Virus record (IMG/VR): IMGVR_UViG_2671180864_000006 | Direction: 5' to 3' (one strand) | From: a virus | Taxonomy: Duplodnaviria; Heunggongvirae; Uroviricota; Caudoviricetes | Length of the DNA stretch: 31,147 nucleotides | Shown: in pieces, positions 1 through 31,147 of the stretch | Position numbering within the stretch: position 1 is the stretch's first letter | Layout of the letters: each line of letters begins with the position of its first letter | Notes under the pieces: generated by a model | The model's input: only the letters and a program-made list of their open reading frames with translations | Told to the model about the DNA's origin: nothing | Database searches by the model: none | Translations under genes and position numbers: made by a program

Positions 1-31
1 CTCAAAGTGATCTACTATTCCGCGCAGCTAT

Positions 32-496
32 TTAGATTCGTCTCGCCTGCCAGAAATTTTTCTGCCAATAGACATTATCAAGTGAGGAACGCATCACTCC
101 CTTGCTGGTAGAGGCGTGGATAAATTGGTTGTTGGTATCGTAAATACCTACATGCAAACCATTTTGTCCGGAACCCGTTTTGAAAAAGACCAGGTCACCA
201 GGCAGCAACTCGTCTTTATCAATTTGCGTGCCGATAGAGGCTTGTTCTTTGGTTTCTCGGGGCAGCTGCAAATCGAAACGATCGCGCATCGTTACAACCA
301 CAAATCCCGAACAGTCCACACCGCGCCGCGTCATGCCACCATAACGATACGGCGTGCCATGCCAGCTTTGTAGCTGGTCGTTCAAACCGGCAATAACGGT
401 AATCGAATCAGAAAGTCTGGCATTTGGCGGCGGTGCTTTATGGTGGCTACACCCGGCCAGAAACAGTGCTGTGATCAAAATAAGGCAGAAACGCAT
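32..496 (-). CDS. nlpC: NlpC/P60-family lipoprotein
   Basis: 154-aa ORF with lipoprotein signal and lipobox (LFLAGCSH) and a conserved Cys in the C-terminal domain; sits downstream of btuD as in the E. coli chromosome; AGAGGA RBS upstream of the ATG at 496. Confidence 0.85.
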   Translation of the reverse strand: MRFCLILITALFLAGCSHHKAPPPNARLSDSITVIAGLNDQLQSWHGTPYRYGGMTRRGVDCSGFVVVTMRDRFDLQLPRETKEQASIGTQIDKDELLPGDLVFFKTGSGQNGLHVGIYDTNNQFIHASTSKGVMRSSLDNVYWQKNFWQARRI

Positions 497-24401: not shown

Positions 24402-24924
24402 TTCACTGTTACCACCATCAGCCAGCAATTTCATGCGTTGTGCCGAAGCCGTCGGAACACGCATTACAGACATTCCGGCAGACCTCAACACGCTGTGGTC
24501 GCCGGACACCTGCCCGGTGCATCTGCTGCCTTATCTCGCCTGGGCGTTTTCCGTTGACCGCTGGGATCGCAACTGGCCGGAAGAGACAAAGCGACAGGTG
24601 ATTCGTGATGCATGGCTGATACACCGACACAAAGGAACCATCAGCGCCCTGCGACGGGCCATTGAGCCGCTGGGATACCTCATTCGCGTGTCTGAGTGGT
24701 GGGAGTTCAACGGCGAACCCGGAACATTCAAGATTGATGTTGGCACGCTGGACAGTGGCGTGACGGAGGAAATGTATCTGGAAATGGAGCGGTTGATTGC
24801 TGATGCCCGCCCGGTCAGCCGCCACATGACAGGGCTGAATATCATTCAGGAGATTCAGGGAGATATTTTCGCGGCAGCAGCAACTTACGACGGTGAAGTC
24901 ATTACCATTTATCCGGACGATTAA
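24394..24924 (+). CDS. I: Baseplate/tail protein, P2 gpI-like
   Basis: 176 aa from the internal ATG at 24394 (MSNSLLPP...), overlapping the J stop. Confidence 0.8.
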   Translation: MSNSLLPPSASNFMRCAEAVGTRITDIPADLNTLWSPDTCPVHLLPYLAWAFSVDRWDRNWPEETKRQVIRDAWLIHRHKGTISALRRAIEPLGYLIRVSEWWEFNGEPGTFKIDVGTLDSGVTEEMYLEMERLIADARPVSRHMTGLNIIQEIQGDIFAAAATYDGEVITIYPDD

Positions 24925-24926
24925 GC

Positions 24927-26897
24927 ATGAGTACCACAACACGAAAATTTAAAACCATTATCACCGATACGGGTGCAAAAAAATTAGCGCAGGCAACCGC
25001 GCCAGATGGGAAACCTGTCCGCCTGACACATATGGCCGTGGGTGACGGCGGCGGTACTTTACCCACGCCAGACAGTAAGCAGACCCGTCTTGTGCATGAG
25101 GTGTGGCGACATACCGTTAATCGCGTCACCCTGGACGCAACACATCAGAACCACATTATTGCGGAGCTGGTTATTCCTCCTGAAACGGGCGGATTCTGGA
25201 TCCGGGAAATTGGTGTGTTTGATGAGCACGGCGATTTGATCGCGGTAGGCAATACTGCCGAAAGTTACAAGCCAACCGTTGCCGAAGGATCCGGACGTGC
25301 ACAAACATTTCGCACCATTCTGACCGTATCCAGCACTGCCACTGTGGCGCTTACCGTGGATAACACCATGGTGATGGCCACAGTGAATTACGTGGATGAC
25401 AAACTGAAAGAGCATGAACAGTCACGACGTCACCCGGACGCCTCGCTGACCGCAAAAGGCCTTGTCCAGCTCAGCAACGCCACCAACAGCACGTCTGAAA
25501 CGCTGGCAGCGACACCAAAAGCCGTTAAGGCAGTAATGGATGAAACGAACAAGAAAGCCCCATTAAACAGCCCGGCACTGACCGGAACGCCAACAACACC
25601 AACTGCGCGACAGGGAACGAATAATACCCAAATCGCAAGCACGGCTTTCGTTATGGCTGCGATTGCCGCACTTGTAGACTCTTCGCCTGATGCACTGAAC
25701 ACACTGAACGAGCTGGCGGCGGCGCTGGGCAACGACCCGAATTTTGCGACCACCATGACTAACGCGCTTGCGGGTAAGCAACCGAAAGATGCCACTCTGA
25801 CGGCGCTGGCGGGGCTTGCTACTGCGGCAGACAGGTTTCCGTATTTTACGGGGAATGATGTCGCCAGCCTGGCAACCCTGACAAAAGTCGGGCGGGATAT
25901 TCTTGCGAAATCGACCGTTGCCGCCGTTATCGAATACCTCGGTTTACAGGAAACGGTAAATCAGGCTTCTGGCGCATTACAGAAAAACCAGAACGGCGCA
26001 GATATTCCGGGGAAAGATACCTTCACCAAAAATATTGGTGCCTGCCGCGCATATAGCTCATGGCTGAATATTGGTGGCGATAGTCAGGTCTGGACAACCG
26101 CGCAATTTATTTCGTGGCTGGAGAGTCAGGGAGCATTTAACCATCCTTACTGGATGTGCAAAGGCTCATGGGCTTATGCAAATAATAAGGTCATTACAGA
26201 TACAGGTTGCGGAAATATTTGTCTTGCAGGTGCTGTGGTGGAAGTTATTGGCACTCGCGGCGCAATGACCATACGCGTTACCACGCCGAGCACGTCCAGC
26301 GGTGGCGGAATTACTAACGCTCAATTCACTTATATTAATCATGGTGATGCTTACGCTCCTGGCTGGCGACGAGACTACAACACGAAAAATCAACAACCTG
26401 CATTTGCTTTAGGGCAAACAGGAAGCACTGTCGGAAATGATAAAGCTGTTGGCTGGAACTGGAATAGCGGGGTCTATAACGCAAACATTGGTGGCGCATC
26501 GACATTAATCCTCCACTTCAATATGAATACGGGGAGCTGCCCTGCTGTACAGTTCCGCGTGAATTACAGGAACGGCGGTATTTTTTATCGTTCAGCGCGT
26601 GATGGTTATGGCTTTGAAGCTGACTGGTCAGAGTTTTACACCACAACCCGCAAACCCTCTGCGGGAGATGTTGGTGCATATACGCAGGCAGAATGTAACT
26701 CAAGGTTTATTACAGGTATTCGCCTTGGTGGTCTGTTATCTGTTCAGACATGGAATGGTCCCGGATGGTCTGACAGGTCAGGTTATGTTGTTACCGGTTC
26801 CGTTAACTCAAACAGAGATGAACTAATTGATACAACTCAGGCAAGGCCAATTCAGTATTGCATTAATGGGACGTGGTATAACGCGGGGAGTATTTAA
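24927..26897 (+). CDS. H: Tail fibre protein, P2 gpH-like, with a currently joined variable C-terminal module
   Basis: 656-aa ORF whose N-terminal region is of the P2 gpH type; the C-terminal part downstream of an internal crossover site (25927-25952) resembles the other variable cassettes in this window. Confidence 0.88.
   Translation: MSTTTRKFKTIITDTGAKKLAQATAPDGKPVRLTHMAVGDGGGTLPTPDSKQTRLVHEVWRHTVNRVTLDATHQNHIIAELVIPPETGGFWIREIGVFDEHGDLIAVGNTAESYKPTVAEGSGRAQTFRTILTVSSTATVALTVDNTMVMATVNYVDDKLKEHEQSRRHPDASLTAKGLVQLSNATNSTSETLAATPKAVKAVMDETNKKAPLNSPALTGTPTTPTARQGTNNTQIASTAFVMAAIAALVDSSPDALNTLNELAAALGNDPNFATTMTNALAGKQPKDATLTALAGLATAADRFPYFTGNDVASLATLTKVGRDILAKSTVAAVIEYLGLQETVNQASGALQKNQNGADIPGKDTFTKNIGACRAYSSWLNIGGDSQVWTTAQFISWLESQGAFNHPYWMCKGSWAYANNKVITDTGCGNICLAGAVVEVIGTRGAMTIRVTTPSTSSGGGITNAQFTYINHGDAYAPGWRRDYNTKNQQPAFALGQTGSTVGNDKAVGWNWNSGVYNANIGGASTLILHFNMNTGSCPAVQFRVNYRNGGIFYRSARDGYGFEADWSEFYTTTRKPSAGDVGAYTQAECNSRFITGIRLGGLLSVQTWNGPGWSDRSGYVVTGSVNSNRDELIDTTQARPIQYCINGTWYNAGSI
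25927..25952. promoter_or_regulatory. Crossover site A (gix/pix-like) inside H
   Basis: TTATCGAATACCTCGGTTTACAGGAA, 23/26 identical to the Mu gixL sequence as recalled; encodes IEYLGLQE at the constant/variable junction. Confidence 0.6.
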
Positions 26898-26899
26898 CG

Positions 26900-27433
26900 A
26901 TGATGCACTTAAAAAACATTTCTGCTGGTAATCCTGAAACAAAAGAGCAATACCAGCTAACGAAACAATTTAACATCAAATGGCTTTATACAGAGGATGG
27001 GAAAAACTGGTATGAGGAACAAAAGAACTTTCAGCCTGATACGTTGAAAATGGTCTATGACCACAACGGCGTTATTATTTGTATTGAAAAGGATGTTTCA
27101 GCAATTAATCCGGAAGGCGCAAGCGTCGTTGAGGTTCCTGATATTACAGCAAATCGCCGGGCTGATATTTCAGGTAAATGGATGTTCAAAGATGGCGTAG
27201 TGATAAAGCGAACTTATACCGGGGAAGAGCAGAGGCAACAAGCGGAAAATGAAAAGCAAAGCCTGCTACAGCTCGTCAGGGATAAAACCCAGCTATGGGA
27301 CTCACAGCTACGGCTGGGCATTATTTCCGACGAGAATAAACAAAAATTAACCGAGTGGATGCTCTATGCGCAGAAGGTCGAATCCACAGACACCTCCAGC
27401 CTGCCAGTAACGTTTCCCGAACAACCAGAATGA
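26900..27433 (+). CDS. G: Tail fibre assembly protein, P2 gpG-like
   Basis: 177-aa ORF; close paralogue of the 29029-29562 ORF. Confidence 0.85.
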   Translation: MMHLKNISAGNPETKEQYQLTKQFNIKWLYTEDGKNWYEEQKNFQPDTLKMVYDHNGVIICIEKDVSAINPEGASVVEVPDITANRRADISGKWMFKDGVVIKRTYTGEEQRQQAENEKQSLLQLVRDKTQLWDSQLRLGIISDENKQKLTEWMLYAQKVESTDTSSLPVTFPEQPE

Positions 27434-27436
27434 AAC

Positions 27437-27463
27437 AAGGCCCGATATCGGGCCTTAATTTTT
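27437..27463 (+). terminator. Rho-independent terminator after G
   Basis: Palindrome AAGGCCCGATATCGGGCCTT followed by AATTTTT. Confidence 0.55.
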
Positions 27464-27629
27464 ACTCAGGCTTTTGTGGCCATTCTGGCTTTGCCGTATC
27501 CACACGGCTGACCAGAACACTGTAGCGTTCCCATGCTTCCAGTCGTGTGCGTTCCTCGTCCGTCGCCATATTCAGCCTGACAGCGCGTTCCAGCGGCTGG
27601 ATGACTGATTCAGCTTCGGTCGACGTCCG
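27456..27629 (-). pseudogene. 3' remnant of a convergent tail-fibre assembly gene
   Basis: Identical to the 3' end of the minus-strand assembly gene at 29591-29747; ends at a junction with invertase sequence at about 27629/27630. Confidence 0.7.
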
Positions 27630-28061
27630 CCTGTGCGCCCCCGTGCGCGTGCTGCCGCCAGTCCGGCCAGTGTACGTTCAACAATTAATTCACGTTCCAT
27701 TTCAGCCAGGGCACCCATCACGTGGAAGAAAAAACGCCCCAAGAGAAGATGTATCTATGCTGTCGGTCAGACTGCGAAAATTAATTCCTCGCTCCCGTAG
27801 TTCCCCGACGAGAGAAATCAGATGTTTCATGCTTCGCCCGAGGCGATCCAGTTTCCAGACAACCAGCGTGTCACCTTTTTGAAGGCGCTTTAAAGCACGT
27901 TTTAATCCAGGTCGGCCTGTCCTTGTTCCGCTTAATTTATCTTCAAATATTTGTTCATATCCTGCACAAACAAGAGCGTTTCGTTGCAGGTCTGTATTCT
28001 GGTCATTTGTTGATACCCTTACATAGCCAATCAGCACGCTGAATCTCCCGTCCAAAAGCAC
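27630..28061 (-). pseudogene. Serine DNA invertase (Gin/Pin/Cin/Hin family), truncated and frameshifted
   Basis: N-terminal catalytic domain intact (GYVRVSTNDQNTDLQRNAL...) but the frame breaks after DSIDTSS at about 27715 (apparent 2-bp deletion); the alternate frame continues as [22 protein letters not shown]...GGRRPKL and then fuses to the assembly-gene remnant, so the C-terminal HTH domain is missing. Confidence 0.8.
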
Positions 28062-28091
28062 AAATCATGCCATGCAGGCCAGAAACCGCCA

Positions 28092-28117
28092 TTATCTAAA
28101 ACCTCGGTTTACGAGAA
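28092..28117. promoter_or_regulatory. Crossover site B (gix/pix-like)
   Basis: TTATCTAAAACCTCGGTTTACGAGAA, 23/26 identical to the Mu gixL sequence as recalled; same orientation and reading-frame relation as site A, but with TAA in the first half. Confidence 0.6.
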
Positions 28118-29026
28118 CTCGGCACAAGCGGGGAGAAAATACCGTTACTCAGTACAGCGAATACCTGGACTAATCGACAAACATTCAGCGGTGGCCTTTC
28201 TGGTGAACTATCCGGCAATGCTTCTACAGCTGCAAAATTAAAAACTGCCAGGAAAATAAGCAATGTGGCTTTTGATGGTTCCTCCGATATCACATTAAAA
28301 GCAAGTCATGTTGGTGCGTTTGCCTTAGGGAAAACAGGAAGCACCGTTGCGAATGATAAAGCAGTTGGATGGAACTGGAGTAGCGGAGCCTATAACGCAA
28401 CTATTAGTGGTGCATCAACGTTAATTATTCATTTTTATATGGGAGAAGGAAGTTGTCCTGCAGCTCAGTTTCGGATTAATTATAAAAATGGCGGTATTTT
28501 TTATCGTTCAGCCCGTGATGGTTATGGTTTTGAAGCCGACTGGTCCGAATTTTACACCACCAGAAAACCTTCAGCAGGAGATGTTGGTGCACTGCCGTTA
28601 TCTGGTGGTCAACTGAATGGTGCACTGGGTATCGGAACATCCAGTGCTCTTGGCGGTAATTCGATTGTATTGGGTGATAATGACACGGGCTTTAAACAAA
28701 AAGGCGATGGTAATCTGGATGTTTATGCTAATAACGTCCATGTTATGCGCTTTGTCTCCGGAAGCATTCAAAGTAATAAAACCATAAATATTACGGGACG
28801 TGTTAATCCCTCGGATTACGGTAACTTTGATTCCCGCTATGTGAGAGATGTCAGACTTGGCACACGAGTTGTTTAGACCATGAAGAAAGGCGTGATGTAT
28901 GAAAAATCAGGCCATGTAATCACGGGGCTTGGTATTATCGGTGAAGTCGATGGTGATGATCCGGCAGTATTCAGACCAATACAAAAGTTAATTAACGGAA
29001 CATGGTATAACGTATCGCAGGTATAA
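28100..29026 (+). pseudogene. Promoterless alternative tail-fibre C-terminal cassette with an in-frame amber codon
   Basis: Frame is open from site B (NLGLRELG...) and related to the H C-terminus (KAVGWNW, GIFYRSARDGYGFEADWSEFYTT); TAG at 28874-28876 interrupts it, and the same frame continues to a conserved fibre C-terminus ([11 protein letters not shown]) ending at 29026. Confidence 0.7.
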
Positions 29027-29028
29027 TC

Positions 29029-29562
29029 ATGCAGCATTTAAAAAACATTGTCGCAGGTAATCCAAAAACCGTTGAACAATACCAGCTAACAAAGAATTTT
29101 GATGTTATCTGGTTATGGTCCGAAGATGGAAAAAATTGGCATGAGGAATTAAAAAACTTTCAGGAGGATACAATAAAACTGGCTTACACAGTTGAGGGAA
29201 TAATTATTGCTATAGACAAGGATGTATCAGCAATTAATCCAGAAGGTTTAAGTGTCGTTGAGTTGCCTGATATTACAGCAAATCGCCGGGCTGATATTTC
29301 GGGCAACTGGATGTTCAAAGATGGTGCGGTGATAAAGCGAACTTATACCGAGGAAGAGCAAAGGCAACAAGCGGAAAATGAAAAGCAGAGCCTGCTGCAG
29401 CTCGTCAGGGATAAAACCCAGCTGTGGGACTCTCAGCTACAGCTGGGCATCATTTCCGATGAGAATAAACAAAAATTAACCGAGTGGATGCTCTATGCGC
29501 AGAAGGTCGAATCCACAGACACCTCCAGCCTGCCAGTAACGTTTCCCGAACAACCAGAATGA
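29029..29562 (+). CDS. Tail fibre assembly protein for the second cassette
   Basis: 177-aa paralogue of gpG; C-terminal third is near-identical at the DNA level to G. Confidence 0.8.
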
Positions 29563-29565
29563 AAC

Positions 29566-29592
29566 AAGGCCCGATATCGGGCCTTAATTTTT
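29566..29592 (+). terminator. Hairpin terminator between convergent assembly genes
   Basis: Same AAGGCCCGATATCGGGCCTT palindrome plus AATTTTT as at 27437-27463. Confidence 0.5.
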
Positions 29593-30118
29593 ACTCAGGC
29601 TTTTGTGGCCATTCTGGCTTTGCCGTATCCACACGGCTGACCAGAACACTGTAGCGTTCCCATGCTTCCAGTCGTGTGCGTTCCTCGTCCGTCGCCATAT
29701 TCAGCCTGACAGCGCGTTCCAGCGGCTGGATGACTGATTCAGCTTCGGAAAGCAATGCGGCCTTTTGTGATTCGGCCTGTTGTTGCTGTTCGTCAGCCGT
29801 ATAAATCCGTTTAACCACAGCTCCGTCCTTAAACATCCACTTACCGGAATCATCAGCACGACGATTAGCTGTAATATCAGGAACCTCAACGACGCTATAA
29901 CCTTCAGGGTTAAGCGTGGAGGCATCTTTGGTGATGGCGACAATAATATTATTTGCATCGTAAACAATCTTTATTGTGTCTGGCTGAAAGTTCTTCACTT
30001 CCTCATACCAGTTTTTTCCGTCCTCAGAGTAAAGCCAGATGACTCCGTGCTTCTTTGTTAACTCATACTGCTCCACTGTTTTAGCATTACCTGCTTTTAT
30101 GTTCTTTAAGTGCATCAT
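29591..30118 (-). CDS. Tail fibre assembly protein for the third (inverted) cassette
   Basis: Minus-strand gpG/Tfa homologue starting [11 protein letters not shown]; the track's 11-aa N-terminal extension is probably spurious. Confidence 0.75.
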
Positions 30119-30119
30119 A

Positions 30120-31147
30120 TTAAATACTCGCCACATTATACCAAGTGCCATTTATATACTTTTGCACTGGCCTGTAATGAACGCCTGCAATATTATCGGC
30201 AGAGTTTTTTCCGGTATCCTGTACGTTAATCCCCGTCAGTACATAGCCTGACGGGCACTGAAAATTCCATGTTTGCCAGTTGTTCACTCCATAATATTGC
30301 TGTGAACCAAGTCGAACATCTTTCACATATCTGGAATCAAAATTGCCATAGTTGCCGGGAATAACTTGCGAGCCGCAAAGCCAGTTCCCGTTATTATCCA
30401 TGTACGCCTGACCATCGGTGCCATTGGCTGTCCTTGAGTTATTAATCATGTAGATGCCAAATTGCTTATTTCCCAGACCGCCAATCATAAATTTGCGGTC
30501 GGCATGGTCCTGACGGAGCAAAGCCTGAGCACCATCAGTGGATACCGCATTACGTCCCAAAATAACATTCTGGTCACGCATATGAATCCACATGCCGGTA
30601 CTACTGTTAATTGCAAAACGGTTTGCAAATATATCCCCTGTAACATCAAGACCATGCCCCATGCTTATCCGGCCAGTTCTGAGATTAAGCGTAAAGGGGC
30701 GTAGTGGCCCTATATTACCATTTTCCCCTTCATTCTCTCGTGTAGGGATGATATGCAGGCATTCTTCAGAACGACGAAAAATGGCACCAAAAGATGAATT
30801 AAATATCCTCAGTGCATTGACTGTCGATATTTTCACTTCACTGCTGAAAAGGGCTTCAACAAGAACAGACAAAGCATTCCATTTAAGATTCATCAGGTCT
30901 TTAGGCCGGGTGCCAATGATGCGGTGTCTCCATTTGAAATATTCATTGCCGTTGTTGCCTGTTTCAAACCACATGTAGGAATCGGTGTCTGCATCCGAAT
31001 TATTTTTAAACCCAATCTTTGCCCAGTCAGTATTTCGAATCCAGGCAAGGATTGAGTCGTTTTCAAAAGTAAGTCCACCGGACAACGTATCGCCATTTTT
31101 TTGCACGGCGTTACCAGCCTTGTTTACCGTTTCCTGTAAACCGAGGT
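30120..31147 (-). CDS. Third alternative tail-fibre C-terminal cassette, inverted orientation (partial; open frame leaves the window)
   Basis: Minus-strand ORF ending in a conserved fibre C-terminus ([11 protein letters not shown]); the frame stays open upstream through site C, encoding ...[21 protein letters not shown], the same junction peptide as in H. Confidence 0.75.
31131..31147. promoter_or_regulatory. Crossover site C (gix/pix-like), inverted relative to A and B, cut by the window end
   Basis: TTCCTGTAAACCGAGGT is the reverse complement of the right half of sites A and B. Confidence 0.55.

Follow-up and report, generated by a model that had tools for sequence, protein, structure and literature searches.

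The window analysed here, a stretch of 31147 nucleotides taken at its full length, is the complete contig CXDC01000039.1 of the draft assembly GCA_001258035.1. Its prophage matches that of S. sonnei ATCC 29930 (CP026802.1) at 99.96%, and on this match the window very probably comes from S. sonnei. Based on Pfam domains, open reading frame analysis and a comparison with phage Mu, we read the region from 24927 to the end of the contig as an invertible tail-fibre region of the Mu G-segment type in a P2-like prophage.

The tail-fibre gene H (24927-26897, plus strand, 656 aa; Pfam Phage_tail_fib, Phage_fiber_2 and gp37_C) consists of a constant part, Sc, up to crossover site A, and of the variable tip Sv1 beyond it. 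Site A (25927-25952, plus strand, TTATCGAATACCTCGGTTTACAGGAA) is gix-like, belongs to the repeat families D6 and I6, and matches the Mu boundary TTATCCAAAACCTCGGTTTACAGGAA. It is followed on the same strand by the assembly gene U1, the P2 'G' counterpart (26900-27433, 177 aa, Caudo_TAP), whose product is 97% identical to Mu U'. Downstream of U1 lies a palindromic hairpin, AAGGCCCGATATCGGGCCTT (27437-27456), which is terminator-like on both strands and has a fold energy of -18.3 kcal/mol (z = -4.2). Next comes a 3' fragment of the assembly gene U' with 52 codons (27462-27619, minus strand), which is the same as 29591-29748; homology to U' stops at 27619.

To the right of this fragment, the window contains the 5' piece of an invertase gene (27620-28061, minus strand), which covers codons 1 to ~149 and thus the resolvase domain only, with no helix-turn-helix (HTH). 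Crossover site B (28092-28117, plus strand, TTATCTAAAACCTCGGTTTACGAGAA, family D6) is direct relative to site A and inverted relative to site C. The frame of the variable tip Sv2 (28106-28876, plus strand, gp37_C) is open from site B to its stop codon, and the assembly gene U2 (29029-29562, plus strand, 177 aa, Caudo_TAP) is 84% identical to U1. A second hairpin copy (29566-29585), also scored as a terminator on both strands, is followed by a full U' (29591-30118, minus strand, 175 aa), 90% identical to Mu U, and by the variable tip Sv' (30120-31130, minus strand), a 328-aa ORF that is open up to site C and 100% identical to that of the relative L005. Of site C, only the inner 17 nt are present (31131-31147, minus strand, TTCCTGTAAACCGAGGT), as the contig ends 3 nt past the core dinucleotide.

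Sites A and C are inverted relative to each other and both match Mu gix; the constant fibre part lies outside them, and the opposed open tips each have their own assembly gene. It is among the relatives, whose DNA is 99.8-100% identical, that both orientations of the segment are seen. The window contains no intact invertase with a resolvase domain and a C-terminal HTH; in the relatives, an intact copy of 195 aa lies beyond site C. For Gin, Cin and Hin, a Fis-dependent enhancer acts in cis and is located within the 5' region of the invertase gene.

The relatives show two layouts. In the ordinary layout we observed H, U1, U' (175 aa), Sv' (328 aa), the intact 195-aa invertase and the tail operon. 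In the flipped layout, the same segment is inverted (L016, L020, L021 and L024), and H has 678 aa in L016, L021 and L024. Many relatives have an identical H product of 656 aa, with H DNA that is 99.9-100% identical. With 27620-29748 taken out, the window has exactly the ordinary arrangement of all relatives examined, closed S. sonnei genomes among them, at 99.9-100% identity.

A direct repeat and the mosaic block between its copies

A self-comparison of 25000-31147 revealed a direct repeat whose copies are offset, without gaps, by a constant 2129 bp, in agreement with an earlier sequence-only reading that had seen a repeat in direct orientation about 2.1 kb apart. Copy 1 (27074-27619, plus strand, at least 90% identity) and copy 2 (29203-29748, plus strand) align at ~94.5% identity. 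The near-identity that had been proposed for the interval 27190-27629 also holds, as its self-alignment with 29319-29758 gives 95.2%. In the base-by-base profile, the exact part covers 288 bp, from 27332 to 27619 in copy 1 and from 29461 to 29748 in copy 2, and this exact match rules out a chance origin of the repeat. Identity had been read by eye from about 27330 to 27629; it is real for 27332-27619 and stops there, because 27619 is the right edge. Likewise, the second copy had been placed at about 29320-29747, which gives its approximate position, but its end is at 29748.

The left edge of the repeat is not sharp. Identity declines gradually, from ~90% at 27074-27340 to 67% at 26900-27073, and weaker homology persists through the fibre-tip coding part back to the crossover sites (repeat families D2-D6), with patches at offsets of 1913-2165 that reach the 26-bp site pair at 25927 and 28092. 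The whole paralogy therefore spans roughly 1.7 kb of two half-cassettes (25921-27619 against 28086-29748), and the repeat is the best-conserved end of these half-cassettes rather than a discrete 440-bp unit. Of the duplication of roughly 440 bp that had been described, the repeat itself stands while its size does not. A simple copy-paste of 440 bp is ruled out, since the whole half-cassette is homologous and the block between the copies is a mosaic from three sources. The contents ascribed to the repeat, which are the end of an assembly gene, the terminator hairpin and the 3' end of a convergent assembly gene, were borne out by Pfam, terminator scoring and alignment.

The hairpin and the 3' end of U' (27440-27619 and 29569-29748) are also found at 97-98% identity in P7, in P1-like plasmids, and in lambdoid and P2-like prophages. 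Such a conserved hairpin-U' centre would favour homologous exchange of cassettes and would also confuse assemblers.

The right edge of the repeat is a sharp breakpoint at 27619/27620, where 10 nt, TCAGCTTCGG (27610-27619), are common to both flanking homologies: homology to the invertase starts at 27610 and homology to U' ends at 27619. On the two sides of the block, we observed the ordinary P2-like prophage. BLAST shows 24900-27619 to be 99.9-100% identical to that of the relatives (100% in most), and in a position-by-position comparison 29461-31147 is 100% identical to L005. In the relatives, the equivalent of 27619 directly abuts the equivalent of 29749. Because the flanks are contiguous there, the window is an ordinary prophage with a 2129-bp insertion, 27620-29748.

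Within the insertion, we observed a piece of the P2 invertase in reverse, then a lambdoid cassette, then the P2 centre again. These segments meet in three switch zones of exact overlap, with 10 nt at 27610-27619, 27 nt at 27870-27896 and 47 nt at 29461-29507. The segment 27610-27896 is the exact reverse complement of the P2-like prophage's own invertase, except at 27742, as aligned with L005; the invertase piece is thus P2-type in 27610-27896 and lambdoid-type in 27897-28061. Over 27870-29507, the window matches at 100% the cassette that a lambdoid prophage carries beside trpA-C. Accordingly, U2 is lambdoid-type up to 29460/29507 and P2-type thereafter. At 9 positions in 29508-29693, copy 2 departs from the native lambdoid continuation; therefore, the exact part of copy 2 is not the lambdoid allele but the P2 allele printed again. 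In sum, sites A, B and C stand on one contig, and site B together with Sv2-U2 is a 100% allele of another prophage, joined via a gap and short overlaps. None of the three breakpoints falls at a crossover core, which rules out that the lambdoid cassette was captured through site-specific recombination between gix sites.

A look-up of the U2 protein led to this lambdoid prophage beside trpA-C in ten S. sonnei chromosomes. The order at the lambdoid locus is methyltransferase, a 215-nt invertase stub, site B, Sv2, U2, hairpin, U' and a lambda-type side tail fibre. Across genomes, the cassette occurs in both orientations (L026 6819-9115 vs L033 7060-10250), with a fibre of 918 aa vs 875 aa. Because the adjacent invertase is a 5' stub of 215 nt only, the cassette would have to be inverted in trans, for example by the P2-type invertase, and the stub may be retained for the cis enhancer.

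In addition, the invertase piece contains a gap character. Position 27742 is N in the source record CXDC01000039.1 (L012) and A in the window, while the intact invertase has TTG. With TTG restored, the reading frame holds as far as codon 149, beyond which the piece continues, out of frame, into the U' fragment. The apparent frameshift is therefore a gap artefact, because the N replaces TTG, and a frameshifted invertase pseudogene is ruled out, although the truncation at codon 149 stays. The N further indicates that scaffolding or gap filling took place inside the inserted block. As printed, the invertase remnant ORF has no exact-protein record, as expected given the N.

Origin of the extra block

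The duplication is more likely a false join of the draft assembly than a biological feature, and we put the probability that it was made by scaffolding or gap closing at roughly 0.6. If so, both repeat copies would be one piece of the P2-like prophage, which was written out twice in a draft contig scaffolded from short reads. The true locus would consist of the fibre constant part, site A, Sv1, U1, the hairpin, U'/Sv' on the opposite strand, site C and the intact invertase. The block 27620-29748 would then come from three sources: a reversed piece of the prophage's own invertase, the paralogous cassette (invertase stub, site B, Sv2 and U2) of the lambdoid prophage elsewhere in S. sonnei chromosomes, and a second printing of the U-hairpin-U' centre. 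We infer that these pieces were joined in silico, for example by a greedy scaffolder or a gap closer, at the exact overlaps of 10, 27 and 47 nt, with one gap left as a single N. An artefact of this kind predicts another contig that starts with TTTAGATAATGGCC and continues into the intact invertase.

Several observations are those expected of a chimera. There is an N at 27742 as well as the contig end, the segments equal other loci, the breakpoints fall within stretches of exact identity, and the arrangement is absent from closed relatives. Indirect evidence for a single copy comes from closed genomes that carry a near-identical prophage, such as CP032523.1 and CP026802.1, where the repeat is present once; in CP032523.1 (loci L006 and L026) and CP026802.1, the P2-like and the lambdoid loci are both present and both in their ordinary form. 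The extra block is also absent from 25 and 26 other contigs with identical H and U1, respectively, among the 10 places listed for each. GapFiller accepts an extension overlap of 10 nt or more to close a gap, uses the same reads again and does not close gaps in repeats. The paper on the Sanger pipeline characterises both SSPACE and GapFiller as greedy tools that tend to make false joins, with 4-10 misassemblies per genome. The contig resembles such joins in its short exact overlaps, the shortest of which (10 nt) equals the GapFiller default minimum, in the single N within a repeat and in the sequence that is printed twice. The sequence-only reading had warned that the repeat may cause collapse in a short-read assembly; this points in the wrong direction, since what separates the two copies resembles an artefactual insertion and not a true duplication that has collapsed.

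The contig end provides further evidence of assembly trouble. We observed that its last base is the last base common to both possible continuations of site C, which are TTTAGATAA toward the invertase (L005) and ATTCGATAA toward the fibre constant part (flipped isomer); the next base after 31147 is T on the invertase side and A on the fibre side of the flipped isomer. This suggests that the contig stops at an unresolved inversion branch, and it is compatible with the presence of both orientations in the culture, or with some other source of ambiguity here. In L014, which is another draft of this prophage, the break is at the window equivalent of 27563, inside the repeat.

Some features speak against a chimera. 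We reconstructed no legitimate read-pair link that would place the reverse-oriented invertase piece after the U' fragment and thereby trigger the first join, in which respect the contig differs from the SSPACE/GapFiller false joins. Such a link is hard to find because in no ordinary isomer of either prophage does the 3' end of U' adjoin the reversed invertase. By a rough estimate, a chance terminal overlap of 10 nt at any one gap has a probability of 1e-3 or less. Moreover, the 27-nt switch zone is shorter than the GapFiller default extension overlap of 29 nt, so that this zone would have to be closed by overlap, or with a small k.

The junction exactly matches the product of an unequal exchange between the two copies of TCAGCTTCGG in the flipped isomer. 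This 10-mer is present in both the invertase and U'. In the ordinary isomer the two copies form an inverted pair (L005 12684 and 14576), while in the flipped isomer they form a direct pair 2167 bp apart (L021 8544 and 10711; also L024), near codon 149 of the invertase and near codon 135 of U'. Because the orientation of the pair changes, the inversion state sets which illegitimate rearrangements are possible, inversion on the one hand and duplication or deletion on the other. Thus, the junction might be real and stem from a private tandem duplication via these direct repeats, which we regard as possible but rather unlikely. Unequal exchange or replication slippage would double the 5' part of the invertase, the crossover site, Sv, U, the hairpin and the 3' end of U', and a later ordinary inversion between the outer sites would produce the order in the window. 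The lambdoid interior, 27897-29460, would then be either a real gene-conversion patch or a paralogue that the assembler swapped in for a collapsed Sv1-U1 copy.

The hybrid flank predicted from this exchange is the same as window 27595-27645, with the end of a unit joined to the start of a unit at a short direct repeat, and the flipped substrate exists, as both orientations are found among the relatives. A tandem duplication also accounts for the U' fragment abutting a reverse-oriented invertase without a spurious scaffold link. As weak support, the sub-contig end at 27741 equals 27609 + 132, as expected for the end of a junction node if k = 133, where k is a free parameter; the values of the assembler k inferred from the left end, 27741 and 31147 are mutually inconsistent. 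However, this route depends on two rare events, namely duplication at a 10-bp repeat and conversion over 1.6 kb, or on one such event plus an assembly error, and the left end of the conversion would fall in the last 27-50 nt of the available homology. The two units are also not identical, given that 27897-29460 is the lambdoid allele, which is 67-90% identical across the assembly gene and has patchier homology upstream. Furthermore, an exact tandem repeat of 2.2 kb is unstable in recA+ cells, and the N at 27742 and the contig end show that the assembler was struggling exactly here. The priors that we estimated therefore disfavour a real junction, because it would take an unstable tandem duplication of 2 kb at a 10-bp repeat as well as a conversion, and favour a chimera, because misassembly is fairly likely with three paralogous cassettes and orientation heterogeneity.

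The searches for the junction also count against a tandem duplication, in that no other genome or protein set searched contains it. The junction 27619/27620 is covered by not a single record among 5426 complete E. coli genomes, INPHARED phages and PLSDB plasmids, all of which are collections without Shigella isolates. The junction 31-mer and the 22-mer ACTGATTCAGCTTCGGTCGACG were absent from GTDB representative genomes and IMG/VR contigs, and the 31-mer was absent from JGI metagenome contigs; these collections, too, are without Shigella isolate genomes. Eight candidate junction-spanning ORFs were absent from a collection of 15 billion proteins that includes NCBI Shigella assemblies. A junction that is native to another prophage gained no support, as it was not found by the 31-mer and 22-mer, by BLAST or by the eight fused-ORF variants, with the DNA collections being those without Shigella isolates. 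The tfaR-pinR neighbourhood of the Rac prophage in E. coli K-12 was considered as a parallel and is a different case, with a full-length pinR.

If a duplication by microhomology in the flipped isomer and a lambdoid conversion patch had both occurred, the contig would be correct as printed, with three tips (Sv1/U1, Sv2/U2 and Sv'/U') and three sites. This combination appears improbable to us, and even then the truncated internal invertase would be at most a second carrier of the enhancer. The sequence-only reading had predicted that recombination between the repeat copies would delete the invertase remnant and the second cassette. The arithmetic of that deletion is right, but the second cassette would not be lost, only 27620-29748, that is, the invertase piece, site B, Sv2 and most of U2.

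Two further rearrangements were also considered. In the first, the P2-like U' would have been joined illegitimately to the invertase of a second element carrying Sv2-U2, so that the other element's fibre gene, on the minus strand, and not an invertase, would lie beyond the contig end. The right half of the region does read like the reverse complement of an ordinary series of invertase, site, Sv, U, U', Sv', site and fibre gene, and the contig ends one base before the nucleotide that separates the invertase-side from the fibre-side continuation. Nevertheless, we hold such an inter-prophage event to be very improbable: 29461-31147 is 100% the P2-type allele, 27610-27896 is 100% the P2-type invertase, and the only native home of Sv2-U2 that was found has a truncated invertase stub and a different Sv'. 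Among the loci read in closed S. sonnei genomes, Sv2-U2 was seen only in the lambdoid prophage, with no second P2-type carrier. In the second, the ordinary isomer would have undergone a single inversion at its inverted pair of 10-mers and no other event. Sites A and C would then be direct and U'-Sv' inverted, contrary to the contig, and the branch at site C would be unexplained; this inversion was rejected.

Relation to known fibre switches

The Mu G segment with Gin and the P1/P7 C segment with Cin have the same gene set and order as the window, including the 26-bp site and a serine invertase. The Mu and P1 cassettes have about 90% DNA identity to the region, and the sites of the window match Mu gix at 23-25 of 26 positions. 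They differ in the host element, which is a P2-like prophage in the window, and in that Mu and P1 are without the third site and third half-cassette, which in the contig are probably not real. Without 27620-29748, the window corresponds exactly to the arrangement of phage P88/Xuanwuvirus and of the E. coli and Shigella prophages between btuC and ihfA. In these P88-type relatives, the order is I, H, U, U'/Sv', invertase and an inverted tail operon, and both the extra block and the junction are absent from all of them.

An established natural system of multiple inversion is the Min system of plasmid p15B, with six sites and an intact invertase. Were the contig correct, the region would resemble Min in having more than two crossover sites and one constant fibre part that can be joined to three tips. 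It differs from Min in that the third cassette is of doubtful linkage and the invertase copy inside the region is without a DNA-binding domain. The underlying biology is the well-known fibre switch of the Gin/Cin/Pin type, with nothing new unless read-level data confirm the joins. If the duplication were true, a two-way switch of the Mu type would have been caught gaining a third specificity via a cassette from another prophage, a modest extension beyond p15B Min. If it is an artefact, spurious additional cassettes, invertase pseudogenes and duplications can arise from the scaffolding of short reads in such fibre regions, above all where paralogous cassettes in several prophages meet mixed orientations in the culture, and such contigs are unfit for inferring multi-cassette host-range switches or deletion-prone repeats.

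At the other end of the contig, window 1-32 is not aligned to the E. coli chromosome at this position, as the top hits all start at 33, and has no match in the loci examined; it may be the edge of a repeat or insertion sequence that ended the contig. In L002, L003 and L005, the operon of sheath, tube, tape-measure and gpU lies on the strand opposite to H and G, with the invertase between the two blocks. A tail operon on the opposite strand is unlike the gene order of P2. We also noticed IS3-family elements in U1 or between Sv' and the invertase (L006 12444-13600 and 15404-16560; also L011, L019 and L022). As these insertions indicate, the fibre switch is decaying in parts of the S. sonnei lineage.
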